Below are positions 263 to 39,281 of a DNA stretch of 64,000 bases, piece after piece. The notes under the pieces were generated by a model. The model was not told the DNA's origin. It searched no databases and saw only the letters and a list, made by a program, of their open reading frames with translations. The stretch lies in contig JAZOSA010000039.1 of the NCBI GenBank assembly GCA_045656905.1, forward strand, positions 417-64,416, read 5' to 3'. A program made the translations under genes and the position numbers. The stretch's first letter is position 1, and every line of letters starts with the position of its first letter. The DNA comes from Bacteroidales bacterium. Its GTDB lineage: Bacteria; Bacteroidota; Bacteroidia; Bacteroidales; F082.

Positions 263-1411
263 ATGAAAACTAAATTTACTTTCAAGGCAATGTCGTTGTT
301 GTTAGTATCGGCATTGCTTTTTTCTTGTCAAGAAAATAAGGTGCAACAAGTTGTCCCAGAGTATGCTGTGATGGCTATTGAAGAGGAACCTGTTGTCGTA
401 AAGAACTCGTTTCCAGCACTCATCTCTGGCGATACCGATGCTGAGGTGAGAAGCAACGTCTCTGGTGCAATCGTGAAAAAACACGTGGATGAAGGCGATA
501 TTGTCAAGAAAGGCGACTTGCTTTTTGAGATAGACCACGCTCCTTATCAAGCTGATTATAACATGGCGCTCGCTAATGTCAACGCCGCTAAGGTAGGAGT
601 GGAGACAGCAGAACTTACTGCAGTCAACAAGACAAATCTCTGTGAGAAAGGCATCATCAGCGAGTATGAAAAGAAACTCGCCGACAACCAGTTGGCATCG
701 GCAAAAGCACAGTTGGAACAAGCAGAAGCAAGATTGCAGACAGCTAAAATCAATCTCGATTATAGTTATATCAAAAGTCCTAACGACGGAGTCGTCGGTT
801 CTATTCCTTTCAGCGTCGGTAGCCTCGTGGGACCTTCAACGGCAACGCCTCTCACAACAGTGTCGCAGATTGATGTAGTGAAAGCAGACTTCTCCATCAA
901 TGAGAAACTTATGCTTTATTACACACAAAAAGGCGGCGTGAAAGACATCCTTAAATATATGCCTGAAGTGGAACTTAAACTCGCCGACGGAACGATGTAT
1001 GAACATAAAGGCAAGATAGTGTCAGTGGCAGGTTCTATCGACACAAAGACAGGCGCTGCTAATATGTCGGCAGACTTTGACAACCCAGCAAAGATCTTGC
1101 GTAGCGGAGCGACAGGAACAATCTATATTCCTCGTGAGATTGCAAACGCACGCCTCGTCCCTCAAAGCGCGACATTTGAGATGCAAGACAAGAAATTCGT
1201 CTATGTGTTCAACGACAGCATTACCGAAATGCGTGAGATTAAAGTCGATAACCTTACTTATGAACAAAACTATATCGTTACAGATGGTCTTGAATTAGGC
1301 GAAGTCATTGTGATAGAAGGCGTCGGTTCTTCAGTTAAGAACGGAATGAAGATAAAACCAATAACAAAAGAACAGGCAGACGCTAAGTTTAACAAGGCTG
1401 TCGGCAAATAA
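263..1411 (+). CDS. RND efflux periplasmic adaptor (membrane fusion protein) lipoprotein, operon 1
   Basis: 382 aa. Lipoprotein signal ...SALLFSC, alpha-hairpin coiled coil (AKAQLEQAEARLQTAKINLDY) and beta-barrel segments typical of the AcrA/HlyD_D23 family. The pump gene follows after TAA + AAGGAGG. Confidence 0.9.
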   Translation: MKTKFTFKAMSLLLVSALLFSCQENKVQQVVPEYAVMAIEEEPVVVKNSFPALISGDTDAEVRSNVSGAIVKKHVDEGDIVKKGDLLFEIDHAPYQADYNMALANVNAAKVGVETAELTAVNKTNLCEKGIISEYEKKLADNQLASAKAQLEQAEARLQTAKINLDYSYIKSPNDGVVGSIPFSVGSLVGPSTATPLTTVSQIDVVKADFSINEKLMLYYTQKGGVKDILKYMPEVELKLADGTMYEHKGKIVSVAGSIDTKTGAANMSADFDNPAKILRSGATGTIYIPREIANARLVPQSATFEMQDKKFVYVFNDSITEMREIKVDNLTYEQNYIVTDGLELGEVIVIEGVGSSVKNGMKIKPITKEQADAKFNKAVGK

Positions 1412-1427
1412 TTAAGGAGGTTACATT

Positions 1428-4400
1428 ATGAAACTAGATACATTCATCAAGCGTCCGGTCCTCTCGACAGTTATTTCCATCATAATAATTGTTCTTGGTC
1501 TCATCGGACTTCTGACGCTTCCTATTTCACAATATCCCGACATCGCGCCTCCGACAGTGGAAGTCAAGGCGTCGTATCAAGGTGCTAATGCTCAAACTGT
1601 AGTCAACAGTGTCATCGCGCCTCTCGAAGAAGAAATCAACGGCGTTGAGAATATGACATATATGACATCAACGGCGACCAACACCGGCGATGCAACCATT
1701 ACCGTTTATTTCAAACCGGGCAGCGACCCTGACATGGCAGCTGTCAACGTACAAAACCGCGTCACTAAAGCACAGGGGTTCCTCCCTTCCGAAGTGACAA
1801 AAGCCGGCGTGACGACAAGCAAGAAGCAGTCAAGTATCTTACTCGCTTTCACAGTATATAGCGAAAACGATAAATACGACCAAGAGTTTATTTATAACTA
1901 CTTGAAGATTAACGTTATCCCTCAGATTAAACGTATCGGTGGCGTCGGTGACGCTCAGGTCCTCGGCGCAGAATACTCGATGAGAATATGGCTGAAACCT
2001 GATGTTATGGCGCAATACGGATTGATGCCTAAAGACGTCGTCGCGGCTCTTAACGAACAGAATATCGAAGCAGCACCAGGTCAGCTCGGCGAGAATTCAC
2101 AAAACGTGACATTCCAATATATGCTGAAATACAAAGGAAGACTCGCGACTCCAGAAGAATTCGGCGACATCGTCATAAGAGCAAACGAAAGCGGCGAGAT
2201 ATTGAGACTCAAGACCATCGCTGACGTGGAACTCGGTTCTTTGACTTATGCCATCGACACTCGCTCGCAAGGTCATCAAGGTATAACAGCGATGATTTAT
2301 CAGTCTGCAGGTTCTAATGCAACGCAGATTATCAATGAAGTCAAGGCTTTGCTCGAAGCAGAGAAAAGAGACTTCCCTCCAGGAATCACATACGACATTT
2401 TGTTGGACTCCAACGACTTCTTGTTCGCTTCGATTCATGAGGTCATCAAGACTTTATTAGAAGCGTTCTTGCTCGTCTTCTTGGTGGTATTCATTTTCTT
2501 GCAGGACTTCCGCTCTACGCTTATCCCTGCCATTGCGATACCTGTCGCTTTGATTGGTACTTTCTTTATGTTGAAAATAATGGGATTCAGTATAAACCTT
2601 CTTACATTATGCGCTATGGTTCTTGCCATCGCCATTGTCGTTGACGACGCCATTGTGGTGGTGGAAGCGGTCCATGAGAAACTGGAGCGAGGGGCTAAGT
2701 CGGCGAAGGCTGCTTCCATAGAAGCGATGAATGAGATTTCAGGTGCTTTGATATCAATCACTTTGGTTATGATGGCGGTGTTTATCCCTGTCAGCTTCAT
2801 GTCGGGCATCACCGGAACATTCTACAGACAATTCGGTCTCACGATGGCGGTGTCAATAGCGTTCTCGGCTATCAACGCTCTTACATTATCACCAGCATTA
2901 TGTGCGTTATTCCTTAAACCTCACGACAATCACGATGGCGAGAAGAAAGGACTTTTGAAGAGATTCTTCATTGCATTCAATACTGCTTACGACGTCACCG
3001 TCAAGAAATATAGCAAAGGCGTAAGTTTCTTCGTTAAAAACAAGACTTTGTCTATAGGCGCAGTCTTGGCAGGCGCAGCATTATTGTTCTATCTTATGGG
3101 AACTACGCCAACGGGATTGGTTCCTAACGAAGACACCGGTACCATCTTCGTGACTGTCGACATGCCAGCTGGAACATCATTGGATAAGACAAAAGACGCG
3201 ATGGCGAAGATTGAGAAATTGGTTGAAAACACGCCAGCTATCAAGACACATACCGCTATTTCCGGTTTCAGTATTTTGAGTGGCGCGATGGGAAGTTCTT
3301 ACGGAACATTTATCTGTAAGCTCCACGACTGGGAAGAACGCGACGAGACAGAAAGCGCCGACGCTCTCAATATGAAGCTTATGATGCAGGCTAGAGAACT
3401 CGTGAAGGAAGGTCGTGTCATCACATTCTCAATGCCTATGATTCCTGGATTCAGCGTGTCGTCAGGCTTTGAATTCAACCTTCAGGACAAGACAGGAGGT
3501 TCAATAGAGTCGTTCTACGCAGTGGCACAAGAGTTTATCGCTCGTCTCAGCGAACGCCCTGAGATAGCACAGGCAAACACCAGTTTCAACCCTACATATC
3601 CTCAATATATGGTGAACATCGACGCTGCAAAATGCAAGCAGGCAGGCGTTTCTCCATCAGATATTCTCACGACATTACAAGGTTACTTCGGCGGTATCTA
3701 CGCTTCTAACTTCAACCGCTTCGGCAAGTTGTATCGTGTTATGGTTCAGGCACGCCCTGAGTTGAGAATCGACAAGGAATCTCTTAATAATATCAAGATA
3801 AGAAACGGAAATGAAATGGCACCGATAACTCAATTCATTGAACTTGAAAGAGTATATGGTCCAGATAACATCAAGAGATTCAATTTGTTCACTTCTATAT
3901 TGGTCAATGGTAATCCAGCTCCAGGATATAGTTCAGGAGAAGCAATCAAAGCTATTGAAGAGACTGCAGAACAATACTTGCCACAAGGCTACGCTTATGA
4001 ATATTCAGGTATGACGAGAGAAGAACAAGGTCAGAGCGGCGGACTCGGAATGATTCTCATTATCTGTATCATGTTCGTTTACTTGCTGTTAAGTGCTCAA
4101 TATGAAAGTTACATACTTCCATTGGTCGTTATTCTTTCAATACCATTCGGTCTTGCAGGAACATTCATCTTTGCGAGAATGATGGGCATCGATAACAATA
4201 TCTATTTACAAATCGGTCTTATCATGCTTATCGGATTGTTGGCAAAGAACGCCATTTTGATTACGGAATTCGCTGTCGCGAGACGTGAGTCAGGAATGGG
4301 CATCGTAGATGCTGCCATCGATGCTGCTTGCGCTCGTCTTCGTCCAATCCTTATGACATCACTCGCGATGATTATCGGTCTTCTTCCAATGATGTTCGCT

Positions 4401-4550
4401 CATGGAGTAGGAGCAAACGGTAACAGCGCATTAGGTTCTGGTGCCATCGGCGGTATGCTGATTGGTATGGTTTGCCAGATCTTCATTGTTCCGTCATTGT
4501 TCGTGATATTCCAAGCAATACAAGAGAAGTTTAGACGAGTTGAAAGTTGA
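1428..4550 (+). CDS. RND efflux transporter permease (AcrB/HAE1 family), operon 1
   Basis: 1040 aa; N-terminus FIKRPVLSTVISIIIIVLG; 12-TM/2 large-loop layout; conserved AIVVDDAIVVVE motif in TM4. Confidence 0.95.
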   Translation: MKLDTFIKRPVLSTVISIIIIVLGLIGLLTLPISQYPDIAPPTVEVKASYQGANAQTVVNSVIAPLEEEINGVENMTYMTSTATNTGDATITVYFKPGSDPDMAAVNVQNRVTKAQGFLPSEVTKAGVTTSKKQSSILLAFTVYSENDKYDQEFIYNYLKINVIPQIKRIGGVGDAQVLGAEYSMRIWLKPDVMAQYGLMPKDVVAALNEQNIEAAPGQLGENSQNVTFQYMLKYKGRLATPEEFGDIVIRANESGEILRLKTIADVELGSLTYAIDTRSQGHQGITAMIYQSAGSNATQIINEVKALLEAEKRDFPPGITYDILLDSNDFLFASIHEVIKTLLEAFLLVFLVVFIFLQDFRSTLIPAIAIPVALIGTFFMLKIMGFSINLLTLCAMVLAIAIVVDDAIVVVEAVHEKLERGAKSAKAASIEAMNEISGALISITLVMMAVFIPVSFMSGITGTFYRQFGLTMAVSIAFSAINALTLSPALCALFLKPHDNHDGEKKGLLKRFFIAFNTAYDVTVKKYSKGVSFFVKNKTLSIGAVLAGAALLFYLMGTTPTGLVPNEDTGTIFVTVDMPAGTSLDKTKDAMAKIEKLVENTPAIKTHTAISGFSILSGAMGSSYGTFICKLHDWEERDETESADALNMKLMMQARELVKEGRVITFSMPMIPGFSVSSGFEFNLQDKTGGSIESFYAVAQEFIARLSERPEIAQANTSFNPTYPQYMVNIDAAKCKQAGVSPSDILTTLQGYFGGIYASNFNRFGKLYRVMVQARPELRIDKESLNNIKIRNGNEMAPITQFIELERVYGPDNIKRFNLFTSILVNGNPAPGYSSGEAIKAIEETAEQYLPQGYAYEYSGMTREEQGQSGGLGMILIICIMFVYLLLSAQYESYILPLVVILSIPFGLAGTFIFARMMGIDNNIYLQIGLIMLIGLLAKNAILITEFAVARRESGMGIVDAAIDAACARLRPILMTSLAMIIGLLPMMFAHGVGANGNSALGSGAIGGMLIGMVCQIFIVPSLFVIFQAIQEKFRRVES

Positions 4551-4633
4551 AAACGGAAAATTGAAAATTGAAAAATGGATACAAAGACAGTTGTCTGTTG
4601 ACAGTTGTCCGTTGACTTTAAAAATATAAAACG

Positions 4634-5998
4634 ATGAAAAAGATAATATATATCACAATATGCGCTTTCGTGTTGAGCAGCTGTAACATTTACAGGCAAT
4701 ACGAGCGTCCGGAGGTAGCTGCCCCAGATTCATATCGCCTGCCAGAAGATATGACGTCTGCCGACACTACTTCGATAGCAGATCTCAGCTGGACTGATAT
4801 TTACGCAGATACAAACCTACGCACATTAATTAATTACGGTCTTGAAAATAACACCGACCTTTTGGTGGCGATGGAGAGAGTGAAAGAAGCGCAGGCTGCT
4901 CTTAAGTCGGCAAAGTTGTCGTTCCTTCCTTCAGTCTCTCTCAATCCACAAGGCGGTTTGTCGTATGCCGGCGGCGCCACATCATGGAGTTATGATGCAT
5001 CGGTATCAGCAAGTTGGGAGATAGATTTGTTCGGCAAATTATTAAACAACAAGAGAAAAGCGCAAGTCGTTCTTTTACAGAATGAAGAATACAAGCAAGC
5101 AGTGAGAACGCAGCTCATTGCTACGATAGCTGATTTTTATTTCAACCTTCTGGCGTTAGATAAACAGTTGAACATCTATACTATGACAGAGCAGAACTGG
5201 GCTGTAAGCGTCGAGACCATCAAGGCGATGAAAGAAGGCGGCATGACTAACGAAGCTGCTGTAGTTCAATACGAGGCGTATCACGCATCTATCGCTGCTG
5301 CGATTCCTGATATCAAAGCTGCGATTATGAAACAGGAAAACGCTTTGTCTGCATTGCTCGGCGATTATCCTGATGTCATCGCTAGAGGCAAACTTGATGA
5401 GCAGAAAGTCGAGTTCGACATTCAGGCAGGCGTGCCGTTGCAACTCTTGGCAAATCGTCCTGACGTGAAAAGCGCAGAATATAAATTAGCTTCGATGTAT
5501 TATAACACCAATGAGGCACGTGCTGCGTTTTATCCAAATATCGTCATCGGCGGAAGTGCGGGATGGAGCAACCTCATAGGCGGAAAGATCGTCAATCCAG
5601 GTCAGTTCCTTGCGAGTGCGCTCGCTTCGTTGACACAACCTATCTTCTATAGAGGCGCGAACAAGGCGCGACTAGAAATAGCCAAGGCGCAGGAAGAAGA
5701 AGCGAAGCTGCAGTTCAGACAAAGCTTGTTAAACGCAAGTATGGAAGTCAGCAACGCTTTGATAACATACGACGCTGAAGTGAAAAAAGAAGTGGAACGC
5801 GACAGACAAATAGAAGCGTTATATAAAGCAGTTGAATATACAAATGAGTTGTTGAAACTCGGCACATCGACATATCTTGAAGTGTTGGACGCACAGCAGT
5901 CGCTGCTCAATGCTTTGCTGTCGAAGACCGACGATCAGTTGAATAAACTCAATGCAGTGACGTCGTTATATCACGCCCTCGGTGGTGGAAGGGAATAA
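4634..5998 (+). CDS. Outer membrane efflux lipoprotein (TolC/NodT family), operon 1
   Basis: 454 aa; lipobox VLSSC; paired OEP repeats; C-terminal LYHALGGG motif typical of NodT-family factors. Confidence 0.9.
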   Translation: MKKIIYITICAFVLSSCNIYRQYERPEVAAPDSYRLPEDMTSADTTSIADLSWTDIYADTNLRTLINYGLENNTDLLVAMERVKEAQAALKSAKLSFLPSVSLNPQGGLSYAGGATSWSYDASVSASWEIDLFGKLLNNKRKAQVVLLQNEEYKQAVRTQLIATIADFYFNLLALDKQLNIYTMTEQNWAVSVETIKAMKEGGMTNEAAVVQYEAYHASIAAAIPDIKAAIMKQENALSALLGDYPDVIARGKLDEQKVEFDIQAGVPLQLLANRPDVKSAEYKLASMYYNTNEARAAFYPNIVIGGSAGWSNLIGGKIVNPGQFLASALASLTQPIFYRGANKARLEIAKAQEEEAKLQFRQSLLNASMEVSNALITYDAEVKKEVERDRQIEALYKAVEYTNELLKLGTSTYLEVLDAQQSLLNALLSKTDDQLNKLNAVTSLYHALGGGRE

Positions 5999-12070: not shown

Positions 12071-12404
12071 TTAGGAGTTAGGAATTAGGAATTAGGAGTT
12101 GGAATTACTTCGCGTTCCTTTGCGTCTTTGCGAGAGAAAAATCTATACCCAAAGTCCGTTGACTATTAAGAAAAGCCGTTAAAATCTTTTATATTTTTTT
12201 CACTTGACAAAGGAAGTTTGAGGTTGTAGATTTTTTAATAATTTATATATCAACCAATTACCCCCCCCGAAAAATTTTTAAAACACTTGCTTTTTTGAAA
12301 TAAAATTATAAAATTTGTAGTGCATAATAAAGCCTTGAATTATGAGCCATGAGTCTTGAGCTCACAACTCACAACCCATAGCTCACAGCAAAAAATAAAC
12401 AACT

Positions 12405-13292
12405 ATGAAAACATTAAAAAAATTATCAGCAATTGCAATCTTTTCTTTTGCAGTATTATTGTCGTCTTGCGATCCTGGTTTTGATGACACTTATAAAGTG
12501 AAAAACGGTCTTGACAGAGATGTCAAATTAACTCAAGGAAGGGTCTATGGAACAAACGAAAAAGTAAGACCTTCCGATACAATAATAATTAAACCTGATG
12601 AAACAAAGGTTGTATATCAGGAGGGCGGAATAGGTTTTTCTCCATTTGATGGTATAGTTCTAGATATCGACTATATTCTTTACGAAGAATACAGGCCTTA
12701 CATCATTTTTGACGACAGCATTGATTATAAAATACTTGATTATAGCAATGCAGGAATAATAAAAACATTTGAAAAATCCATCTTCAAGAAATCTTGTTGG
12801 GAAATCTTGTCAAGAAACGAAAATGATAATGTACACGAAGTCTTTTATACTATAACAGAAGAAGACTATCAGAATGCTGTCGTTTTGAATAAATGCGAGC
12901 CAAAACCTGATGTTGAAATTAATGGATATTCAGTTACCGAATGTCTTGAAAAAGACCGTGGACTAATGTATTATGATAATGATACGATTTATGTTACTGC
13001 CATAAACGACAGCAGTCTTATGATAAAAACCACAAGTACTTTATTCAATTGTTGCTCTGAAGAATTCTTTGGAGATGCATATTGGTATGAAAATAAAATT
13101 CGCATATCGATGTTTGAAATTGAAGGTGATCCATGCGACTGTGTATGTCCTAGAAGCGTTGAGTTTGTCTTGAGTAATTTGGAAATAGGAGAGACGTATA
13201 ATATTGTTCTATCGAAAGATCTAAATGGTAAATATTTCAGTTTTGAAGTCGTCTTTGAAAGAAATACAGATTTGATGTTTATCAGATCGTAA
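12405..13292 (+). CDS. Hypothetical lipoprotein
   Basis: 295 aa; lipobox VLLSSC; Cys-rich C-terminal half; no family recognised. Confidence 0.6.
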   Translation: MKTLKKLSAIAIFSFAVLLSSCDPGFDDTYKVKNGLDRDVKLTQGRVYGTNEKVRPSDTIIIKPDETKVVYQEGGIGFSPFDGIVLDIDYILYEEYRPYIIFDDSIDYKILDYSNAGIIKTFEKSIFKKSCWEILSRNENDNVHEVFYTITEEDYQNAVVLNKCEPKPDVEINGYSVTECLEKDRGLMYYDNDTIYVTAINDSSLMIKTTSTLFNCCSEEFFGDAYWYENKIRISMFEIEGDPCDCVCPRSVEFVLSNLEIGETYNIVLSKDLNGKYFSFEVVFERNTDLMFIRS

Positions 13293-13492
13293 GGGAGTTA
13301 GGAATAATTGTAGAGACGTGTCAATTACATCTGAAAATGAAAAATGAGTAATTGCTGCGTCTTGATAAATTAGGAATTGAGGAGGCGTCTTTTAAATTGA
13401 AAATTGGCTATGAGCAGTGAGCTATGAGTTGTGAGCAGTTATGCCCAAAGCTCACAGCTCATAGCTCATAGCAAAAAAATTAAAATTAGCTT

Positions 13493-14833
13493 TTATTCCA
13501 AACCTCCGCCTAAGGCATGATACAATGTTATCACGCTTTGTATCTCGAGGAATTTGTCGTTGGTCTCGGTAAGCTCTGCCTGTAAAAGATTCTTCTGCGC
13601 TGAGAGGACTTCGATGTAAGTGGCTTGCCCGTTTTTCATGAGAAGCTGCGTGTTAAAGACAGCTCCTTTTAAATACATAATCTGTAATTTGTCGCTGTCT
13701 AATCTCTTGCGAGCGGTCTGCCACGATATCAAGGCGTTGTTTGCCTCAGTGCCTGCGTCTAACAGTGTCTGCTTGAAGTTGAGCAACGCTTCTTGACGTT
13801 GCGCCTCGCTGATTTTTACTCTCGCTTTATTTTTTCCTTGATTGAATATTGGCTGTACCAAACCTGCTACGGCATTGTAAATCCAGTCTCCAGGGTTGCC
13901 GTTGATGCCTGCCCAGCCGCCGCTTCCGCTTAAGGTGATGCTAGGGTAGAAGTAGGAACGCGCTACATTGGTGGCGTAAAATGCTTCAACTAACTTATAT
14001 TCTGCTTGTCTTACATCAGGACGATTGACGAGGCTCGATAATGGAAGTCCCATCAACAATGTGTCTGGAAAGACTTGCTGCGACAATTCATTGCGTTCAA
14101 ATTCTTGTGGCACGAGACCTAAAAGTGCTGACAATGAATTCTCTTGTTCAATGATTTGTTTTTCTAATGTCAAGATGGAAGCTTCGACATTGACTTTGTT
14201 AGCCTTTGCTTGTAAGACAGCAGCCTCGTTGGTTTTGCCGGCTCTCTTCAATGCCGATAATGTTCTGATGTTTTCTTCCCAAGTGTTGAGTGTTCTCTTG
14301 CTGATTTCTAATTGTTCGTCGAGCATGAGAAGCGTGTAATAAGCGTCTGCTATAGTTGCAACGAGTTGTGTCTGAATAGCTTGTTGATATGCTTCTGTCG
14401 CTGCTAATGCAGCTTCTGCGCCTTTCTTTGTGTTACGTAATCTTCCGAAAGCATCAATTTCCCAAGAAGCGGTAGGAGTGAGGCTGTAGTTAAAACCTTC
14501 CTCCTTTACGCCTGCTTGTGCAGAAAACGACACATTAGGATAAAACGCCAGCTTTGATGTCTGTAATGTCGCTTCCGCTTGTTCTACTTTCAATCGTGCT
14601 ATCTCTAAATCAGTGTTGTTTTTCAATCCTATTTCAATTAAATCTTGAAGAAGCGTATCGGCGAACAGTTCTCTCCATGTCAATGAAGCAATTGATTCAT
14701 AGTCTCCTGCGGCAGGAATTCTGTTGTATAAACTATCAACAAAATCGATTTCAGGACGCTCGTAGTCTTTATACAGAGCGCAGCTGTTCATCGTGACGAG
14801 TAATAATATCAAAGGAATTAATATCTTTTTCAT
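13493..14833 (-). CDS. Outer membrane efflux lipoprotein (TolC/NodT family), operon 2
   Basis: 446 aa; lipobox TMNSC; a clear paralog of 4634-5998 (YERPE, WEIDAFGRL, LYHALGGG). Its start overlaps the pump stop (ATGA). Confidence 0.9.
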   Translation of the reverse strand: MKKILIPLILLLVTMNSCALYKDYERPEIDFVDSLYNRIPAAGDYESIASLTWRELFADTLLQDLIEIGLKNNTDLEIARLKVEQAEATLQTSKLAFYPNVSFSAQAGVKEEGFNYSLTPTASWEIDAFGRLRNTKKGAEAALAATEAYQQAIQTQLVATIADAYYTLLMLDEQLEISKRTLNTWEENIRTLSALKRAGKTNEAAVLQAKANKVNVEASILTLEKQIIEQENSLSALLGLVPQEFERNELSQQVFPDTLLMGLPLSSLVNRPDVRQAEYKLVEAFYATNVARSYFYPSITLSGSGGWAGINGNPGDWIYNAVAGLVQPIFNQGKNKARVKISEAQRQEALLNFKQTLLDAGTEANNALISWQTARKRLDSDKLQIMYLKGAVFNTQLLMKNGQATYIEVLSAQKNLLQAELTETNDKFLEIQSVITLYHALGGGLE

Positions 14834-17800
14834 GATTCTATTTCTTTCTCTCTTTTAGGCATTACTTTTTCTTCAATGTTTCTGAAAATGATGAATAACA
14901 CAGGCACTACGAATAGTAATGCTATTGTTCCGATGAGCATTCCGCCTACCGTTCCGACGCCGATTGATATGTTGCCGTTTGCGCCTACGCCAGTGGCGAA
15001 CATCAATGGCAACATACCGAATATCATTGTCAATGAGGTCATCAGGATTGCTCTTAATCTTGCCTTCGCGGCTGACATCGCAGCCATTGTAATCGACATG
15101 CCTTCTGCTCTTCTCGCTGATGCGTATTCTGTAATCAAAATTGCTGTCTTTGCTAATAAACCTATCAGCATCAGAAGTCCGATTTGGAGGTAGATGTTGT
15201 TTTCCAATCCGAACATATTGGCGAACAAGAAACTTCCAGCGAGGCCGAATGGTATTGATAATATGACGACGATAGGAATGAGGACGCTTTCATATAAAGC
15301 GCAGAGTATTAAGTATATAAATACTATACATATTATGAATATCATCGCTGTTGAGTTGCTGGAGTCTGCTTCTTCTCTCGACATTCCGCCGAATTCGAAA
15401 CCGTAGCCTGCAGGTAATAACTCTGCTGCTACTTCTCTCACTGCTTGAATGGCTTCACCAGAAGAATAACCGTTTGCTGCTTGTCCGTTGATTTGTATTG
15501 AAGAGAAGAGGTTGAAACGAGAGATGGCTTGCGGACCGTAGACACGGGTTAATGTGACGTATTGTCCGATTGGCGACATTTCTCCTTCTTTATTGCGTAC
15601 GAACATATTGTTGAGCGACTCGGTGTCGAGACGGTATTCTGCCGATGCCTGAAGCATGACGCGGTAAAGCTTGGAGAATCTGTTCATATTAGAAGCGTAG
15701 CTTCCGCCTATATAACCTGCCATCACGTTGAGCACGTCACCTGGTGAAACGCCGTTGCGCTTGCATCTGGCAGCATCTACTTCCAAAAGATATTGTGGAT
15801 ATTTAGTGTCGAATGATGTTGACGCTCTGCCTATTTCTGGTCTGTCGTTAAGTGCGTTGATGACATCATTGGTGATTTTCTGCAGGTCTTCGAGACTTCC
15901 GCCTTTCTGGTCTTGGATATGAACCTCGAATCCGCTACTTGCTCCGTAGCCTGGAATCATACCGCGAGTGAAGACGATAATCTTTGCTGATGTGATGTCG
16001 GCTGTCTTGGCATAAATATCTTCCATCACGAAGTCGATATTGTCTTCAATCTCAGTGCGTTGGTCCCAAGGTTTGAGACGAATGGTGAATCCACCGCATG
16101 AAGGACCGACGCCACTCATCATACCGTAACCTGTTGTGTAGGAATATGATTCTATCTGAGGAATCTCGTCTAAACGAGAGGCGATGAGTTCCATGACGCG
16201 TACTGTCTCTCCTAAGTTCGTTCCTGGAGGTGTCTGAACATCGACATTGATAGAACCCATGTCTTCTTTTGGAACGAGACCTGTCTTGGTGTTTTCTAAC
16301 ATATAGAAAAGTCCGCCTAAAGCAGCGATGACGAGTATCACCGAGAACCATTTGTTTTTAAACATAAAGAGAACGCCTCTTTTATATCTGTTGATAAGTC
16401 CTTGGAATCCAGCGTCGAATACGACATGGAATCGTGTCGAGAATGACATGCTGCCGTCTTCTCTGATGACGTAAGGCTGCATCAGCAATGCGCATAATGC
16501 TGGACTTAATGTGATGGAGTTGATGAGTGAGATACCGACAGCGACGGCCATGGTGAGACCGAATTGTGTGTAGAATGTTCCTGTCGTTCCGCCCATGAAA
16601 CATACTGGAATGAACACTGCCATAAAGACGAATGTCGTAGCAATCAATGCGTTGGAGATTCCTTGCATCGCATCTACAGTTGCTTTATATGGTGATGTGT
16701 ATCCTGCGTCGAATTTGGCTTGCACGGCTTCAACCACAACGATGGCATTGTCAACGACAGTACCGATGACGAGCACCAAGGCGAAGAGCGTAATCATGTT
16801 GAGACTGAATCCTGCGACCATCAAGAATGCGAATGTTCCTACGAGGGAAACGATGATGGCGATGGCTGGGATGAAAGTTGAACGGAAGCTCTGCAAGAAG
16901 ATGTAAACGATTAAGATAACCAAGATGACGGCTAAGATGAGAGTTTCGATGACGTTGTCGATAGATGCGTCGAGGAAGTCTTTAGTACTCATCAAGTCGA
17001 CGATTTCGATGCCTCTTGGTAATGTTTTTCTGATTTCTTCTATTTCTTTGTCGATGGCGTCGATGATTTCATTGGCGTTAGAGCCTGAAGTCTGCGAAAT
17101 CATCAAGGTGGTTCCTGGATGTCCGTTTACCTTACCGATATAATCATAACTTCTAGAACCTAATTCTACAGTGCCGATGTCTTTGAGTTTCAATAAAGTT
17201 CCGTCGTTGTCGGCACGGATTATCATATTGGCGTAGTCTTCTTCTTTGTCGTAACGTCCTCTGTATTTCAAGGTGTAACGGAACGTGTTTTCTGAGTCAG
17301 CGCCGAGTGTTCCTGTCGCTGCTTCTAGGTTCTGTTCTGCTAATACTGATGAGATGTCTGATGGCACTAAAGAATATTTAGCCATCTTGGCAGGGTCGAG
17401 CCAGATACGAAGTGAGTAGTCGGCTCCTCTTACGTCGACTTCACCGACGCCTGCGATACGTGACAATCTAGGCTCGATATTGATTTTTAGATAATTGCTT
17501 AAGAATCTCTCGTCGAAGGAGTCGTCAGGACTATAAACAGCGAGGACTTTGATACGGCTGGTTTGTCTTTTCTTGACGCTGACGCCGCTTCTTGTTACTT
17601 CTGCAGGCAACAGACCTTGTGCCGATGCGATACGATTCTGAACGTTGACGGTCGCCATGTCGGCATTGGTGCCTTGACGGAAATAAATCTGAATGCTAGC
17701 AGAACCGTTGTTGTTTGCAGATGATGTCATATACATCATGTCTTCTACGCCGTTGATGGCTTCTTCCAAAGGTACGACGACGCTGTTTTGTACTGTCTCG

Positions 17801-17964
17801 GCATTTGCACCAGCGTAATTCGCTGAAACACTGACAGTAGGCGGCGCGATTTCAGGATACTGCTCGATAGGAAGACCGACGAGGCAGATGAGACCTAAGA
17901 GCACTATTATCACAGAGATGACGCCTGCGAAAATAGGACGGTTGATGAATGTCTTGATATTCAT
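14830..17964 (-). CDS. RND efflux transporter permease (AcrB family), operon 2, taken from the internal ATG at 17964
   Basis: 1044 aa starting MNIKTFINRPIFAGV; AAGGAGGAGG lies 6 nt upstream of this ATG; paralog of 1428-4550. The computed ORF continues upstream without a stop (see next feature). Confidence 0.85.
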   Translation of the reverse strand: MNIKTFINRPIFAGVISVIIVLLGLICLVGLPIEQYPEIAPPTVSVSANYAGANAETVQNSVVVPLEEAINGVEDMMYMTSSANNNGSASIQIYFRQGTNADMATVNVQNRIASAQGLLPAEVTRSGVSVKKRQTSRIKVLAVYSPDDSFDERFLSNYLKINIEPRLSRIAGVGEVDVRGADYSLRIWLDPAKMAKYSLVPSDISSVLAEQNLEAATGTLGADSENTFRYTLKYRGRYDKEEDYANMIIRADNDGTLLKLKDIGTVELGSRSYDYIGKVNGHPGTTLMISQTSGSNANEIIDAIDKEIEEIRKTLPRGIEIVDLMSTKDFLDASIDNVIETLILAVILVILIVYIFLQSFRSTFIPAIAIIVSLVGTFAFLMVAGFSLNMITLFALVLVIGTVVDNAIVVVEAVQAKFDAGYTSPYKATVDAMQGISNALIATTFVFMAVFIPVCFMGGTTGTFYTQFGLTMAVAVGISLINSITLSPALCALLMQPYVIREDGSMSFSTRFHVVFDAGFQGLINRYKRGVLFMFKNKWFSVILVIAALGGLFYMLENTKTGLVPKEDMGSINVDVQTPPGTNLGETVRVMELIASRLDEIPQIESYSYTTGYGMMSGVGPSCGGFTIRLKPWDQRTEIEDNIDFVMEDIYAKTADITSAKIIVFTRGMIPGYGASSGFEVHIQDQKGGSLEDLQKITNDVINALNDRPEIGRASTSFDTKYPQYLLEVDAARCKRNGVSPGDVLNVMAGYIGGSYASNMNRFSKLYRVMLQASAEYRLDTESLNNMFVRNKEGEMSPIGQYVTLTRVYGPQAISRFNLFSSIQINGQAANGYSSGEAIQAVREVAAELLPAGYGFEFGGMSREEADSSNSTAMIFIICIVFIYLILCALYESVLIPIVVILSIPFGLAGSFLFANMFGLENNIYLQIGLLMLIGLLAKTAILITEYASARRAEGMSITMAAMSAAKARLRAILMTSLTMIFGMLPLMFATGVGANGNISIGVGTVGGMLIGTIALLFVVPVLFIIFRNIEEKVMPKREKEIES

Positions 17965-19131
17965 TATTCGCCTCCTCCTTCTGTGAGTTCCTGAGATTCT
18001 GAGATTCTGAGATTCTGAGGTTTTGATTGTAGCTCCTTCACGAACCAGACCTGCGCCTTCAGCAATGATAACGTCGCCGACTTCGAGTCCGCTTTCTACG
18101 ATATAGTCGACACCATTGTTACGAGGCATCACACTGATGGCGGCGGATTGTGCCTTGCCGTCGATGACTTTATAGACGAATACTTTTTCTTGTAACTCGA
18201 ATGTTGCAGTTTGAGGGATAATGATGCAGTCTTCATGTGTTGTAGGGATGATGACTGTTCCACTGCCGCCGTCGCGTAAAAGGCGTTCCGGGTTTGGGAA
18301 TACGGCGCGAAAACTGACGGCGCCAGTGCTTGCGCTGATGGTGCCGCTCACAGCGTTGATTTTGCCTTTGTGCATGTATGTCTTGCCGTTACTCATGACG
18401 AGTTCAACAGCTGGCATGTCTTTGATAGCTGCCTTCAAAGAACCGTATTCTTGTATGAGGTCGAGCATCTGATTTTCTGCCATAGAGAAATAAGCGAAAA
18501 TTTTGCTGTCGTCGGAAACAGTGACCAAAGGCTGACTGATATTGCTGTTGACCAATGCGCCGACGCGATAAGGAATCATAGAAGCGACACCGTTGACAGG
18601 CGACTTCACCATAGTATATGAGAGGTTTGTGTAAGCTTTGTTCATCTCGGCTTTTGCCAATGCGAGTTTGGCTTCTGCTTCAGCTAAATTGTTTTGCGCT
18701 GTCATAAGTTCAAACTCAGAAACGACGTCTTGTTCAAAGAGTTCCTTGCTGCTCTCAAGCACGAGTTGCGCTGTTGAGAGGTTGGCTTCGGCACTCATCA
18801 CGTTTGCTGATGCGATTTCATATGCTGCTTTATATGGAGTCTGGTCGATGACGAAAAGGGTAGAATCCTTGCGGACAAAGTCACCTTCGTTGATGCGGAT
18901 GTCGGTAATCATGCCGCTGACTTGTGGACGAATTTCAACAGTCTGGCAGCCGTTGATGGTGGCGGCAAATCCGCTTTTTAAAACCTGATTGCTTTTTTCA
19001 ACTGTGAGTGTCTTGTAAATGGTTTCAGTTTTTTTCTGAGGAACGACTTTTTCCTGACATGATGTCAACGACAAACCGATAATACCTATAAAAAATAGCT
19101 TGCTAAAATTTCTTAAATTGCTCATTCTCAT
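17965..19131 (-). CDS. RND efflux periplasmic adaptor lipoprotein, operon 2, with no stop codon of its own (reads in frame into the pump gene)
   Basis: Lipobox LSLTSC and adaptor motifs paralogous to 263-1411. The frame runs ...KTSESQNLRISGTHRRRRRI-MNIKTF. Together with the pump this gives the 1433-aa ORF 14830-19131. Confidence 0.7.
17993..18016 (-). repeat. 8-bp microsatellite (TCAGAATC)x3 plus a degenerate 4th unit, at the adaptor/pump junction
   Basis: Plus strand reads GAGATTCT GAGATTCT GAGATTCT GAGG, with degenerate GAGTTCCT at 17985-17992. Confidence 0.95.
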
Positions 19132-19167: not shown

Positions 19168-19359
19168 AGAAATATTTTACGAAGAATGAAAAAAAGATAG
19201 AATGAAATTTGCCCCGAAAAAATAAAAAAAACTCTTGACTTTTACTTTTTGAAACATTATTTTTACAAAAAAAACAAACGAAAAAATATGTTAATTAGAA
19301 CCGGGTGGGAAATTCCACCCGATATATATTGTGTTTTGATTTTATATCATTTCTATTCT

Positions 19360-20196
19360 ATGAAAAAGTCATCAATATTATTAATTCTTATTTTGATTGT
19401 GCTCAATGCAAATGCTCAATGGTGGAAACCTCAGCATCATATACATGATACTGTTAAATATATAGTGATGTATGAACTTACGTTTAGAGAAGATACCACT
19501 CATATGGAATATTATCGAACTGATGATTATATGTTGTCAATAGGAATAGATAACAATATCAGTTCTTTTAGAGGGTACAATGCTTTTAAAAATGATATGG
19601 AACGAAAAAAATTAGGAGATGAGGGCTTGTTGTTGGAGCTAATGCAGACAGGACAGTATCGTTCTAAATATATGCCATCAGTTCATAAATTCGATATATT
19701 TAAGGAATATGAAAAAAGAATTGTTACCACTGTAGATCATATATTTTCTTATGGAATGTATGAATACGAAGAACCTTTCGACAGTTTCAATTGGCAGATA
19801 ACTTCCGAAACAGATACCATTCACAATTATGCTTGTCAGAAAGCGATATGTGATTTCGGAGGTCGTATCTGGGAAGCCTGGTTCACTATGGAGATTCCTA
19901 TCAGTGACGGTCCTTATAAATTCTGTGGACTTCCCGGTCTCATCTTAAATATTGCAGATACACAAGACCATTATTCATACAAATTCATTTCGATAGAGAA
20001 GCCATCTGAACTAATGATGATATACGAAGTCATTGAAGAAAAAATTCCAACAACAAAAAAAGAATTCTTCAAGTTGCAAGATAAAAACAAAATATCACAT
20101 AGCATAACTACCATATCATCCAATGATAAGGCTATTCAAAAAGCTATCGAATATGAAAAGTCCAAAAATAATCCGATAGAATTGGATAGGAAATAA
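19360..20196 (+). CDS. GLPGLI family protein
   Basis: Contains the eponymous CGLPGLIL motif and a signal peptide MKKSSILLILILIVLNANAQ. I prefer the ATG at 19360 to the TTG at 19249. Confidence 0.85.
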   Translation: MKKSSILLILILIVLNANAQWWKPQHHIHDTVKYIVMYELTFREDTTHMEYYRTDDYMLSIGIDNNISSFRGYNAFKNDMERKKLGDEGLLLELMQTGQYRSKYMPSVHKFDIFKEYEKRIVTTVDHIFSYGMYEYEEPFDSFNWQITSETDTIHNYACQKAICDFGGRIWEAWFTMEIPISDGPYKFCGLPGLILNIADTQDHYSYKFISIEKPSELMMIYEVIEEKIPTTKKEFFKLQDKNKISHSITTISSNDKAIQKAIEYEKSKNNPIELDRK

Positions 20197-20275
20197 ATGT
20201 AGAGACGCGTCTGAATTAGGAATAAAAATAATCTTGGACAAAGCCTTTAGTCTTTAGTCCTTAGACATAGAAAAC

Positions 20276-22897
20276 ATGAAACAATCAACGTTGATATTAT
20301 TCCTCATATTGATTTTAGTCAGTATGAAAGTTCAGTCGCAGACTGTAATCAGCGGTCGTCTTGCTGATACCGCAGGCGAGCCTATTCCAAATGTCAGCGT
20401 GTTAGTTCATAATATTGGCAGCGATTTGATTATGGCTTACGGCTTTTCCGACATCGACGGCAACTATGAAATAAGTTTCAACCTTCCGGCAGACAGCTTA
20501 GACATAAAGACTAATTCTTCTTTTTATGAAAAAATAACAAAACGTATTACAAACACTTCTCAAACAATCGACTTCGTTTTGAAAGAAGAAGTCTATGAGT
20601 TGAAAGGCGTTACGGTGATGGCGCGTTCTATTGAGAAAACTGGCGATACTGTAGAATATTTCGTTGATTCTTTTGTAGGTCTTGAAGATAAAAGCATTGA
20701 AGATGTGCTGAAGAAAATGCCTGGAATAGAAGTGGAAGGCAACGGCCAGATTTTATATCAAGGACTGCCGATACAGAAATTCTATGTGGAAGGCATGGAC
20801 TTGATGGACGGGCAATATGCTACCATCAGTAAGAACCTGCCGCATCAGTCGGTGGCGTCGGTGGAGATTTACGAAAACCATCAACCGATACAATTGCTTC
20901 AAGACCGCATCGAGACAGACAGAGCTTCTCTCAATATAAAACTGTCGAAAGACGTTACTGTCACAGGTTCGGGAGAAGTCGGAATCGGAGCTTATCCTTT
21001 GCTGTGGAACGCCAATGTCACGCCGATGCTTTTCTCTGAAAAAGTGCAGATGGTGGCTTCGCTTCAAAGTAATAATATCGGTAATGATCTTCTGAGTAAC
21101 AATATGATAAGCTATTATCAAGATGCGGACGAAGAGGCTCCCGATGCAGATGAAGAACTTTCGATAATAAGTTCACCGATACCTTTAATAGAGAAAAGCA
21201 GATACTTGGACAACACTTCGCATCTCGTGAATTTCAACATACTCGCTCCGATAAGCAAGACAACACAGATGAGAGTCAATCTCTCTTATATCAACGATTT
21301 GCAAAAACAAAATTCGTCACAACAAAACACATATTTCCTTCCAAATGATACGATTTCATATACGGAAAATATAAATAACAAAATCTATGATTCTTACCTG
21401 AAAGGTGATGTCGCTATCGACAGAAACGACAAGAAGGCTTATGTGAAAGATAAAATCGAATTTTCAAAACGATGGAACAAATCATACGGATATGTTTTGA
21501 ATAACGACGAAAACATAAATCAAATTCTTAACAATCAGGCAATGTCAGTGGCGAATGACCTGCGCGTGTTGTTTCCTGTAGGCAAACATCTCCTTGATTT
21601 CGTCTCGTATAATTCTTACGACAATCTGCCTGAATCTCTGAATGTAGAACCAGGAGTATTTGAAGAGATTTTCAATGTAGGAAAACCTTATCAGAAAACA
21701 AGTCAGCATTTCGACAAAGAGCGATTTTTTACAAATGAAGCGTTGAGCGGAATATTTACATTCGGTAATATAATCGTAAGCAGTAAGTTGGGAATCAGTC
21801 ATTATCAGAATAAGGTCAAGACAAATCTTGCAATATTTCCTCATGAAAACTTACCGGGATATACTTCTTTTAGAAATGATGTAAATCACACATATACTAA
21901 GCCGTATCTCAGTTCAAGACTTGAATACAAACTGAGAAGAGCTACTTTTGTCTTAGACCTTCCTCTTTCTTTGAATCATGCCACGACGAACAATCGCGAA
22001 GAAAAGCAGGAACTTACGAAGGTCTTCCTCAATCCGAAGCTCTCTTTTAAATATGAATTTAATAATATGTTCAAGATAAATGCCAGCGGTCAGTATGAGC
22101 AGAATATCGACAACTTTGAAAATTATTACGACAATCCTGTCCTGAGTGATTATCAGAGTCTCTTCACGATGACGGCTCCAATGTCGGTTTCCGATTTGAC
22201 AAGAGCCAACGTGCGGTTTACTTTCAACCAGCCGTTCTATGCGATAAACAGTTCCTTGTCGTACACATATCAGCACAGAAATTCCGACATAATTTATAAA
22301 TACGACATCGACGAAAACGGAGCTTCATATCTTCAGATGATTGAAAGTCCGAACACTTCAGATTATCATGTGATAAATCTTAACGTCAAGAAATTCATCT
22401 CAGTGATAAAGACGACGATAGGATTGAAAGCCAATCTTCTTCACAACACGCGGCATAACATCTTGAACGGAAGTCTTGTCGAGAACAAGAATATTTCAGC
22501 GAGCATAATGCCGAATATGATGGTGACGATTAAACACTGGGCGCATTTCAATTATTCATTTAATTTCAATAACATACAGACATTTAGCGAAGATGTCAAG
22601 AAAAGCGATGTTAATTATCTGCGACATTATTGCAAGCTGAACATCTTTCCTCACAGAGACCATCTCATCACTTTGAACTCGGAGATTTATTCGCATCTTG
22701 GAGAGAATTATGTCTATTTCGATGCGTCATATCAATATTCCATTCCGAAATACAAACTCGATTTTGAGTTAAAATGCAATAACATTTTCAACAATAAATT
22801 GTACGTCTCATATTATTCGGGAGCGTTTTCTATCGTGGAATCTATCTATGAGATACGACCGATGGAAATCTTTCTTTCAGTAAAATTCAGGTTTTAA
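20276..22897 (+). CDS. TonB-dependent-receptor-like outer membrane protein with CarboxypepD_reg domain and plug
   Basis: 873 aa; ISGRLADTAGEPIPNVSVLV...DIDGNYEI; plug-like IEDVLKKMPGIEVEGNGQILYQGLPI; terminal aromatic residue ...KFRF. Confidence 0.8.
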   Translation: MKQSTLILFLILILVSMKVQSQTVISGRLADTAGEPIPNVSVLVHNIGSDLIMAYGFSDIDGNYEISFNLPADSLDIKTNSSFYEKITKRITNTSQTIDFVLKEEVYELKGVTVMARSIEKTGDTVEYFVDSFVGLEDKSIEDVLKKMPGIEVEGNGQILYQGLPIQKFYVEGMDLMDGQYATISKNLPHQSVASVEIYENHQPIQLLQDRIETDRASLNIKLSKDVTVTGSGEVGIGAYPLLWNANVTPMLFSEKVQMVASLQSNNIGNDLLSNNMISYYQDADEEAPDADEELSIISSPIPLIEKSRYLDNTSHLVNFNILAPISKTTQMRVNLSYINDLQKQNSSQQNTYFLPNDTISYTENINNKIYDSYLKGDVAIDRNDKKAYVKDKIEFSKRWNKSYGYVLNNDENINQILNNQAMSVANDLRVLFPVGKHLLDFVSYNSYDNLPESLNVEPGVFEEIFNVGKPYQKTSQHFDKERFFTNEALSGIFTFGNIIVSSKLGISHYQNKVKTNLAIFPHENLPGYTSFRNDVNHTYTKPYLSSRLEYKLRRATFVLDLPLSLNHATTNNREEKQELTKVFLNPKLSFKYEFNNMFKINASGQYEQNIDNFENYYDNPVLSDYQSLFTMTAPMSVSDLTRANVRFTFNQPFYAINSSLSYTYQHRNSDIIYKYDIDENGASYLQMIESPNTSDYHVINLNVKKFISVIKTTIGLKANLLHNTRHNILNGSLVENKNISASIMPNMMVTIKHWAHFNYSFNFNNIQTFSEDVKKSDVNYLRHYCKLNIFPHRDHLITLNSEIYSHLGENYVYFDASYQYSIPKYKLDFELKCNNIFNNKLYVSYYSGAFSIVESIYEIRPMEIFLSVKFRF

Positions 22898-22909
22898 GGA
22901 ATGATACAT

Positions 22910-32770: not shown

Positions 32771-35700
32771 TTACTCCTCTGTGTCTAAATGCTTGTTGTC
32801 TTGTAGTCTCGTTGTCTTGTAGTCTTTCTTATCAGTAATCAAGAAGAAGTTCGGCACGAACAGTGTTCCGAAGATTGTATTCGTAAACATTCCGAAGACG
32901 ACGGCAGTGCCGAGTGCGATACGTGCTTCGGCGCCCGCACCGCTCGCAAACATAAGTGGCAACACGCCGAGCACGAAAGCCAACGACGTCATCAGAATAG
33001 GTCTCAACCTGACGCGTCCTGCCTCCAAAGCAGCTTGCGCTTTCGTCATGCCTGCTTTCCTGTAATCAACGGCGAACTCCACAATCAAAATGGCGTTCTT
33101 CGCAGACAATGCAATCAATAATATAATACCGATTTGGGAATATATACTGATAGGTAATGCCATCACGATGCAACCTAAAACAACGCCGAGCAGTGCCAAT
33201 GGCACACTTAAAATGACAGCGAATGGATTGCCCCAACTTTCGTACATTGCCGCTAAAACCAAGATTACCAATATTATCGCAAGGGCGAATATCATAGAAA
33301 CACTTGAACTTGACAATTTTTCCTGATAAGCGACGGAGGTCCATTCGTAACCGAAGTTATTTCCTAATAATTTTTTAGAAATGTTTTCAAGTGCGTCCAT
33401 CGCCTCGGAACTGCTGTATCCTTCCGCAGCGATGGCGGTGATGTTAGCGGCAGGGTAGAGGTTGTATCTGTTTATCTGCGTCTGTCCCATCTTTTCCTCA
33501 ATATTACAGAATGCTGAGAATGGAACCATCTGTCCGTCAGTGTTTTCTACGCTTAACTTCAAAATGTCGTTGATGACTTTCCTGTCGCCTTGATTGGCTT
33601 GAATGATGACTTGATAAATGTTGTTGAACTTGATGAAATCGTTGGCGAAACTTGATCCCATATATGAAGAAAGCGCATCAAAGACTTGATTTAACTGTAA
33701 TCCCATCATGCCAATTTTATCCCTGTTTATATTCAAGAAATATTGAGGACTATTACCTTGAAACTGATTTTGAAGGTACATCAATGCTGGCTCTTGATGG
33801 TAATTTTCCATTATTGTATTGACAGCGTTTTCTAACTCTGTAGTTCCTAAGTTGTTACGGTCTTCTAATACGAATGCTAAACCTCCAGAAGCACCGAGTC
33901 CTGGGATAGAAGGTGGGTTGACTGCGAATATGTTAGCTTCTTGTATCTCAACGGATTCTGCATTGATTCTGTCGATGACAGCTTCTGCGGATTGCGACTT
34001 GCCCTTACGTTCGTCCCAGTCTTTCAGCATTACGAAGACGCTGGCCTCGTTGGAACTGTTGCCACCTTTTACGAATGAAAATCCGTTGATAACCAAATAT
34101 GTATCAATTTCTGAATATTTGTCTAATCTTTTGGAAAGTTCTTCCGTGACTTTTTCTGTTCTTTCTAAACTCGCTGAGTTGGGCAATTGAACAGTTATTA
34201 AGAAATATCCTAAATCTTCATTTGGTAAAAATTCATTAGGTAATTTAAAGAAAATAAACATTGTGATTACAGAAACGATGACGAATGTCGTAAGCGCAAT
34301 TGCTGGTTTTCTTAAAAATGTTTTTACGATGCCGATATATAATCCTAATGTCTTGTCGTATAATTTGTTAAACCATTTGAGACTCCATTTTTCTTCTTTT
34401 AAAAACAATACGCACATCGCAGGAGTGAATATCAAGGAAATGAAACCGGAAATTACTGTGGCAGTGGCGATTGTGAGTGCAAATTGCTTGTAGAGTTCTC
34501 CTGTGATTCCTCCGATGAATGCTGTTGGAATGAAGACGGCGAGCAGTACCAAAACGATGCTTATCACCGGTCCTTGTATTTCTTTCATGGCTTCCGTAAC
34601 GGCTTCTTTACGAGAATATTTCTTCGATTCAATAAGTCGCGATGAGTTTTCCACCACGACGATGGCGTCATCGACAACGATGGCAATTGCCAGAACCAAT
34701 CCGAATAATGTTAATAAATTTATGGAAAATCCTAAAAGTCGCATCACGGCGAATGTTCCTAATAATGAGATTGGGATTGTGAGCGCGGGAATGATGACGG
34801 CGCGGAAGTTTTGTAAGAACAAGAACATCACCAAGATAACGAGCAATGTCGTTTCTGCTATTGTGACCAATACTTCGTCAATGGATGCGGTGACGTATTT
34901 TGTGTTGTCCATTACGATTTTCATCGTAACTCCTTCAGGAAGATACTGTTGCAAGTCGTTGACCTTAGTCTTCACTTCTTTTGCTACGTCCAATGCGTTA
35001 GAACCTGGCATCTGATTTATTCCGATAGCTGCAATTTCTTTTCCTTTCATCGTTGTCACGACTGAATATGATTGCGAACCAAGTTCTATCTTTGCGATGT
35101 CTTTAAGTCTCAGGTATTTACCTCCATCTAAAGTACGAATTATAATGTTGCCGAATTCTTCCACATCGACCAATCGTCCTTTAGTACTGATGCTATATTG
35201 AAACGCCATATTGCCAGAAGTAGGAGGTGCGCCGACGGAACCAGCCGAAACTTCCATATTCTGTGCTTTTATCATCGATAACACTTCGTCAGGAGTTATA
35301 TCTCTGATTCTCATTATCTCTGGGTCGAGCCAGACTCGCATTGCATAGTCGGAAGCTCCGAAGACGTGAACGTCACCGACACCTTTAAGTCGTGCCAATT
35401 CATTGACGATATTGATATTGGCGTAATTGGACAGAAATAAGCCGTCATATTCTTCTAAGTCGCTGTCAAGTACGATGAACATCAATTGATTAGGACTTCT
35501 TTTCTTCACGGTGATGCCTTGTTGTTTTACAGAAGAAGGAAGATTCGCTTCTGCGAGGTTGACGCGGTTTTGTACCATGACGGCAGCTTCGTCGATGTCG
35601 GTCCCGAGTTCAAAAGTCACTGTTAATGAATATTCTCCATCGCTTGAAGAACTGGAACTCATGTACATCATGTTTTCCACGCCGTTGACTTGTTGCTCAA

Positions 35701-35896: not shown

Positions 35897-35900
35897 AGCT

Positions 35901-37028: not shown

Positions 37029-37074
37029 ATATTTTGAATTTAATCTTTAAACTATAAACTATAAACTCTCAACC

Positions 37075-39270: not shown

Positions 39271-39281
39271 AAAAGAAAAAC

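Follow-up and report, generated by a model that had tools for sequence, protein, structure and literature searches.

An octanucleotide repeat in the 3′ tail of an efflux adaptor gene was found to differ by one unit between alleles in which adaptor and pump are encoded separately and alleles in which they are fused. The repeat lies in a 64,000-nt stretch of contig JAZOSA010000039.1 from an uncultured Bacteroidales bacterium (assembly GCA_045656905.1), and this whole stretch is referred to below as the window. In one of the three resistance-nodulation-division (RND) operons of the window the repeat has three units, and adaptor, linker and pump form a single open reading frame (ORF) of 1433 aa, 14830..19131(-), with no stop codon between them. 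In related genomes with four units the two genes are separate. We consider the window to carry a genuine, recent and recurrent slipped-strand allele, which probably silences this operon, and the probability of this interpretation was put at roughly 0.68.

Adaptor and pump in one reading frame

On the minus strand the junction reads ...ACC TCA GAA TCT CAG AAT CTC AGA ATC TCA GGA ACT CAC AGA AGG AGG AGG CGA ATA ATG AAT.... This sequence and the stop-free ORF are exactly as described in an earlier sequence-only reading of the window, which had also stated, correctly, that adaptor and pump are encoded by separate genes in the two paralogous operons. These two RND operons are located at 263..5998(+) and 32771..38541(-). 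In a Pfam search of the fused ORF, adaptor domains were assigned to aa 60-288, and the stretch aa 392-1417 matched ACR_tran. With the NCBIfam models, the adaptor half (residues 1 to ~372) was matched by TIGR01730 with 230.8 bits (cut-off 94.9) over aa 40-370, and the pump half (residues 391-1433), an HAE1-type RND permease, by TIGR00915 with 999 bits (cut-off 940). The outer-membrane factor gene, which is the next one downstream, passed the curated cut-off of TIGR01845 (NCBIfam). The adaptor, RND permease and outer-membrane factor families of a tripartite HAE1 RND operon were thus all present; adaptor and pump were one ORF in the window allele and separate polypeptides in the relatives. The features of the operon are as follows.

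17965..19131, minus strand: adaptor part (periplasmic membrane-fusion protein), the conserved body of which ends ...EGATIKT
after the conserved adaptor body, minus strand: adaptor tail SESQNLRISGTHRRRRRI, frame-shifted from about residue 381, as judged from the tails of relatives
19057..19131, minus strand: lipoprotein signal peptide MRMSNLRNFSKLFFIGIIGLSLTS followed by C, with lipobox LTSC (...GLSLTS/C), from the translation
17987..18026, minus strand: octanucleotide array, with three perfect TCAGAATC units at 17995-18018 and then TCAG
17971..17979, minus strand: AGG AGG AGG in the fused frame, GGA GGA GGC in the native frame
17962..17966, minus strand: TAATG, in which the native adaptor stop TAA (17964-17966) overlaps the pump start ATG (17962-17964)
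14830..17964, minus strand: RND (HAE1) pump of 1044 aa, by TIGR00915; protein identical to the separate pump of GCA_045633585.1
17872..17934, minus strand: first transmembrane helix (TM1) of the pump, IFAGVISVIIVLLGLICLVGL, from the translation; normally N-in/C-out
13493..14833, minus strand: outer-membrane factor of 446 aa, the start of which overlaps the pump stop (ATGA)

The linker SESQNLRISGTHRRRRRI is encoded by the (TCAGAATC)x3 + TCAG array, followed by AGA AGG AGG AGG CGA ATA. The run of AGG codons overlaps a conserved Shine-Dalgarno-like GGAGG located 6 nt ahead of the pump ATG, and the TAA of TAATG is out of frame in the three-unit allele. The signal peptide was called by the general lipobox rule. 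RND pumps have a short cytoplasmic N-terminus ahead of TM1, as seen in the structure of AcrB. No additional hydrophobic helix was found between the two halves of the fused chain. The earlier remark that such a fusion would be topologically awkward agrees with the lipoprotein signal peptide on the adaptor and with the lack of an extra helix before TM1.

The octanucleotide array and the reading frame

Tandem Repeats Finder reported a repeat of period 8 at 17991-18019 with 3.6 copies and 100% matches, and the perfect units are flanked by degenerate ones, TCAAAACC (18019-18026) and TCAGGAAC (17987-17994). When two tandem units were searched for with at most 2 mismatches, 4 matches were obtained at the array, compared with 0.09 expected in shuffles; period-8 arrays of at least 3 copies occurred at a mean of 0.1 per shuffled window. 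The junction array is far beyond chance. The Rfam scan gave no match at the junction.

The consequences for the frame were simulated in silico for 0-8 units. With 1, 4 or 7 units, adaptors of 383, 391 or 399 aa were obtained, ending in ...ELTEGGGE and a stop codon on TAATG; one and four units were observed in nature. With 0, 3 or 6 units the fused ORF was formed, and three units were observed twice. With 2, 5 or 8 units the adaptor was read in the third frame and overlapped the pump gene by 112 nt, a state that was found in none of the alleles examined. The simulation agreed with what the sequence-only reading had predicted, namely that one added unit would end the adaptor on the TAA of TAATG and that one removed unit (2 units) would lead into the third frame, and the four-unit allele was indeed found in five related contigs. 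The predicted four-unit tail TSESQNLRISESQELTEGGGE was exactly the tail of protein P0244, and it was also that of P0150 with one substitution. As there is no intergenic spacer at the junction, the repeat sits in the dispensable tail of the adaptor, and changes in its length there affect the frame. The 8-nt unit is not divisible by three, and a change in unit number leads to three frame states.

Alleles in related genomes

Five additional contigs were found by scanning for the 3′ flank of the repeat. Four units, with the TAA of TAATG as adaptor stop, were present in three contigs with window-like flanks (L017, a metagenome-assembled genome from cattle colon, L020 and L021) and in two contigs (L012 and L019) of a sister lineage that is ~83% identical. 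L018, which belongs to the same sister lineage, had three units and a fused ORF of 1434 aa, with 83% identity to the window and 95% to L012. The window and L017 were 95% identical, and over 5.3 kb no indel other than the 8-bp unit separated them. It was also the only indel within the coding sequence of the operon when the window was compared with L020, and when L018 was compared with L019. Between L018 and L012, the only indel besides the unit was a 1-nt adaptor frameshift of L012 itself. The change from four to three units arose independently in two lineages.

The frameshift in L012 is a 1-nt deletion relative to L018 and L019 (at the site matching L018 3791), and the adaptor was called as a truncated 318-aa protein, P0150. 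The deletion is either an assembly error or another lesion, of a different kind, that inactivates the same operon.

Other alleles had different tails. L023 carried a one-unit array with a 38-nt tail, L022 an in-frame variant with a 53-nt tail, L013-L016 degenerate versions with 62-nt tails, and L011 an unrelated 77-nt tail. In the lineage of L001 and L010, the pump of which is 94% identical, the adaptors (403 aa and 389 aa) have tails built from heptamers (L001 2898-3000 and L010 1368-1429), which are 42 bp apart in length (six units, in frame). The tail lengths of the 12 other alleles (38, 53, 62, 65, 77 and 107 nt) were all 2 mod 3, and a tail of 0 mod 3 (54 nt) was found only in the window and L018. 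The comparison of the junction in relatives, which had been proposed as a check, therefore gave a length polymorphism with perfect arrays of 1, 3 and 4 units, three units occurring in two lineages, and no fixed, conserved fusion.

In GCA_045633585.1, the pump of the window was found residue for residue as a separate gene, preceded by a 396-aa adaptor that ends one base into the pump start and has a tail unrelated to that of the window. When other assemblies were searched for identical proteins, the pump alone gave a match; none was obtained for the fused ORF, for the outer-membrane factor or for ORFs 12405..13292 and 20276..22897. Among 5.8 billion protein clusters, the closest pump homologues were all of 1042-1053 aa and none was fused, and no fused close relative was found in these clusters, either with the whole ORF as query or with a probe of 300 aa across the junction; sporadic distant fused fragments were the only fusions obtained.

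It was also considered that tails of the P0251 type might represent three units with a compensating 1-nt deletion. This was dropped, as the DNA of L022 is a 53-nt in-frame variant that is not simply so explained. A local recombination tract as the source of the junction similarity between lineages was rejected, because the identity of 92-93% in 60-nt windows fell within the normal scatter of 72-95%.

Selection, codon usage and translation signals

The pump genes of the window and L011 differed at 95 nt, with 92 synonymous and no nonsynonymous codon changes. The corresponding synonymous and nonsynonymous counts were 90 and 4 for the pump against L017, 52 and 2 for the adaptor body against L021, and 130 and 11 between L018 and L012. 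In both fused genomes, strong purifying selection has acted on the genes during virtually the whole of their divergence. Since nonsynonymous changes are nearly absent, the genes must either have kept their function or have been fused very recently. The codon AGG was used 1.68 times per 1000 codons, and among 36 ORFs two adjacent in-frame AGG codons occurred in the linker only. The presence of three such rare codons in a row suggests that the fused linker frame has not been selected for coding.

Unit number had no influence on GGAGG or on how accessible the pump start was predicted to be (mean unpaired probability of 0.50-0.52 for 1-5 units), and by this prediction the idea that unit number alters RNA structure at the pump start was rejected. 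Bacteroidales generally lack Shine-Dalgarno-like motifs. Among 37 gene starts, strong GGAGG motifs were found only ahead of the two RND pumps that follow an adaptor gene (1414-1421 and 17971-17980), and at the junction GGAGG was kept even in L016, where it is untranslated. The suggestion that AAGGAGG is the ribosome-binding site of the pump is consistent with this conservation, but it is uncertain, as the motif is near-absent from the other genes of the window.

Repeats of 7-8 bp across the window

Arrays of at least 3 copies were abundant in the window, with 28 heptamer and 7 octamer arrays compared with ~0-0.1 per period in shuffles. They have 3-8 copies, and 29 of the 35 lie at least half in intergenic sequence or straddle an ORF end, in a window that is 87% coding. 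Examples are located at 4540-4616, 6029-6068, 12069-12107, 13411-13472, 31384-31477, 41032-41068, 46039-46116, 50620-50684 and 56237-56365. An excess of 5-11-nt units with heptamers dominant and a mainly non-coding location, as is characteristic of repeat-rich genomes, was thus observed. The junction array was the only one more than 1 kb away from an ORF end, a position which fits the marking of a hidden gene boundary. When neighbouring intergenic arrays were compared with those of relatives, whole-unit differences of 7, 14 and 28 bp were found. Between the window and L020 (~5.6% divergence), 3 of 5 arrays were unchanged in length.

Several heptamers occurred more than once. CAACAGA arrays were found at 31384-31412 and 46039-46063, with the complement at 50620-50674; AGTTAGG arrays at 12069-12100 and 57460-57484; AATTCAT arrays at 8883-8914 and 32537-32561; and AACTATT, with its complement, at 6684-6713 and 46068-46116. 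Units of the GACAACA/GTCAACA type also compose the adaptor tail in L001 and L010. The recurrence of heptamer units at unlinked loci is a hint that the units form families and did not arise by local slippage alone.

An octamer array of ~4.4 copies at 32792-32826(-) lies within the last 20 codons of a paralogous pump gene (32771..35896), and a unit change there would rewrite the C-terminal tail of that pump. Longer tandem repeats were also observed: a 285-bp unit with 4.5 copies and a 300-bp unit with 3.9 copies in the region 42790-45380 of ORF 41282..45961 (1559 aa), an intergenic 87-bp unit repeated three times at 39193-39453, and a 93-bp unit with ~2 copies at 61951-62166 in ORF 61612..62742.

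Proposed mechanism and alternative explanations

In the proposed mechanism, an octanucleotide repeat that encodes the unconstrained C-terminal tail of the adaptor would have lost one 8-bp unit (from four to three). Because the native stop is the TAA of the TAATG overlap, the shift of -8 nt moves the adaptor into the pump frame, and the 10 intervening codons, which contain no stop, complete a single ORF. The product of ribosomes that initiate at the adaptor would be anchored in the periplasm as a lipoprotein, although the N-terminus of the attached pump has to be cytoplasmic for its first helix to insert. With five arginines wrongly placed relative to TM1, mis-insertion of the full-length chain would be expected, and production of free adaptor would be lost. 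Because of this topology and the loss of free adaptor, the operon is probably in an OFF or low state. The fusion is probably recent on the scale of generations, and regain of one unit would in principle reverse it. The junction repeat is one of the many 7-8-bp arrays at gene boundaries in this lineage that change by whole units.

Several points weigh against this interpretation. The window allele rests on the consensus of one contig, in which an assembly error is possible. Loss of function is argued from topology, and translation of the pump could still begin at its own ATG. The native stop would also be reached again if ribosomes shifted by +1 on AGG AGG AGG. Moreover, the strong purifying selection fits a still-working fused allele as well as it fits a very recent event.

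The sequence-only reading had named three candidates, an assembly error, a recently inactivated operon and slipped-strand control of the efflux system. The last two were not distinguished by the present data; an assembly or consensus artefact, with an organism that truly has four units and separate genes, is disfavoured and seems improbable. The allele is known from a single contig, searches for identical proteins did not find the strain of the window in any other assembly, strains can be mixed in metagenome bins, and the 1-nt frameshift of L012 illustrates that indels of uncertain reality occur in such assemblies. However, the difference is exactly one repeat unit, and it was found again in L018, which was assembled independently and belongs to a different species-level lineage. 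The array of 29-37 nt is also far below the k=141 indicated by the contig names of related assemblies, and no other coding indels relative to the relatives were found across ~8 kb. For slipped-strand control, the mutable repeat stood up to analysis, and it could be supposed that the octamer array has evolved as a contingency locus, kept as a high-frequency reversible ON/OFF or three-state switch, with the window in the OFF phase. Such a locus would explain a frame-altering unit in coding sequence with its three-state logic, perfect arrays of 1, 3 and 4 units in relatives and two independent four-to-three events. An array that is perfect in two lineages ~17% apart in the pump gene suggests ongoing homogenisation by slippage, and the purifying selection on the genes of fused genomes is also in its favour. 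We nevertheless regard it as rather unlikely. The array has 3.6 copies in the window and 4.6 in relatives, of which 3-4 are perfect, whereas the screening cut-offs quoted in the Methods of 10.1101/775932 require 5 or more copies of a tetra- or pentanucleotide, and these are the longest unit classes given there. Switching rate depends on repeat number, and the phase variation described in Bacteroides is invertase-based (PMC11868660). In addition, similar repeats occupy most intergenic spacers, so locus-specific selection is not needed; the unchanged length of most compared arrays in L020 implies slow turnover; and unit states leading to the third frame (2 mod 3) were never seen. A broader version, in which a true contingency locus toggles the operon between coupled separate genes, a fusion partly rescued by +1 frameshifting and a third-frame overlap, and in which the 7-8-bp boundary repeats form an unrecognised 'phasome' in the lineage, is unlikely.

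It is also doubtful that translational rescue keeps the operon partly active as a kind of volume control, by a +1 shift at AGA AGG AGG AGG, which would read GGA GGC GAA TAA, and/or by an internal start at the pump ATG. The rarity of AGG, the +1 frame that runs directly to the TAA of TAATG, and a GGAGG and pump-start accessibility that are indifferent to unit number would all suit such a rescue, and tandem AGG_AGG in E. coli caused up to 50% frameshifting on over-expression (PMC5009743). But that precedent requires over-expression, and tRNA pools may differ here. No shift is needed in the relatives to stay in frame, so a conserved programmed site is not indicated, and the use of Shine-Dalgarno sequences is atypical in this group. 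Least credible of all is a functional covalent adaptor-pump protein, which we regard as very improbable. The long ORF is intact with both halves under purifying selection, and sporadic fused adaptor-pump ORFs exist elsewhere (P0429, P0279, P0490, P0342, P0359, P0366 and P0395). However, the closest relatives and the 12 other alleles have separate genes. The fused ORFs from elsewhere form singleton or near-singleton clusters (one member for P0429, two for P0279) with different linkers, several of them arginine-rich, and no conserved fused family was found in these searches. The linker is made from rare AGG codons and does not reflect normal codon usage, and a periplasmic lipoprotein adaptor conflicts with the cytoplasmic start of TM1 when no extra helix is present. 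A fused ORF at such junctions is a recurrent accident, not a protein family.

Neighbouring features

A 3.7-kb segment at 19199-22937 (ORFs 19249..20196 and 20276..22897) separates the adaptor from a metallophosphatase gene in the window. L018 and L020 had the segment at least in part, and it was missing in L011, L012 and L019, where the metallophosphatase gene is directly upstream of the adaptor. A Flavo-1 RNA motif (Rfam RF01705) was found at 28937-29020(-) with 44.9 bits against a gathering score of 42, which is consistent with an origin from Bacteroidota.

Significance and comparison with known systems

For annotation, the 1433-aa "fusion protein" should be treated as a frameshift allele of two ordinary genes and not as a new architecture. 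The junction shows clearly, in a natural setting, how two genes can be joined or separated by a short tandem repeat located at their stop/start overlap, and among uncultured ruminant-gut Bacteroidales this happened in two species-level lineages. If mixed unit numbers within a sample were true, repeat-driven phase variation would extend to Bacteroidales and to a drug-efflux operon. The lineage-wide excess of 7-8-bp boundary repeats may be a more general subject worth study. The literature search gave no report of repeat-driven switching of RND operons and no description of such repeats in Bacteroidales.

In kind, the junction is a simple-sequence-repeat (SSR) frameshift of the sort underlying contingency loci. 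It shares with the tetranucleotide loci of Haemophilus, the loci of Neisseria and the poly-G tracts of Campylobacter a frame-altering coding repeat of polymorphic length that splits or joins ORFs; C. jejuni has ORF pairs that are split or fused by tract length. It differs from them in its 8-nt unit, in its 3-4 copies and in being known from inter-strain comparison alone. The host is a gut Bacteroidales, and the target is an RND efflux operon instead of a surface structure or restriction system.

With genomes rich in SSRs of 5-11 nt, the window shares the excess of heptamers and octamers, their mostly intergenic or gene-end location and the 3-8 copies. Cyanobacterial short tandemly repeated repetitive (STRR) sequences are another example of this class. 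The class includes the intergenic TAACTGA heptamers of Beggiatoaceae, Cyanobacteria and some Bacteroidetes. Genomes rich in such long SSRs, with heptamers dominant, were described by Mrazek et al. 2007, as summarised in PMC4679880. Here, in contrast, many unit sequences are present with no single dominant heptamer, and the host is an uncultured ruminant-gut Bacteroidales.

The rare AGG AGG AGG with a +1 frame open to the native stop is reminiscent of E. coli, in which ribosomes can shift by +1 where rare AGG codons stand in tandem (PMC5009743); in the present case it would be an accident of the slipped frame, a candidate only and not a conserved programmed site. As in AcrAB-TolC and MexAB-OprM, which are tripartite HAE1 RND systems, the gene order is adaptor, pump and outer-membrane factor with overlapping stop/start codons, but the adaptor stop of the window allele is out of frame and one ORF results. 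Covalent AcrB-AcrA fusions, with the pump first and then the adaptor, were reportedly engineered by Hayashi et al. in 2016, a transmembrane linker being added to solve the topology. The window allele resembles these in being one polypeptide; its order, however, is adaptor and then pump, joined by an arginine-rich linker of 18 residues with no extra helix.

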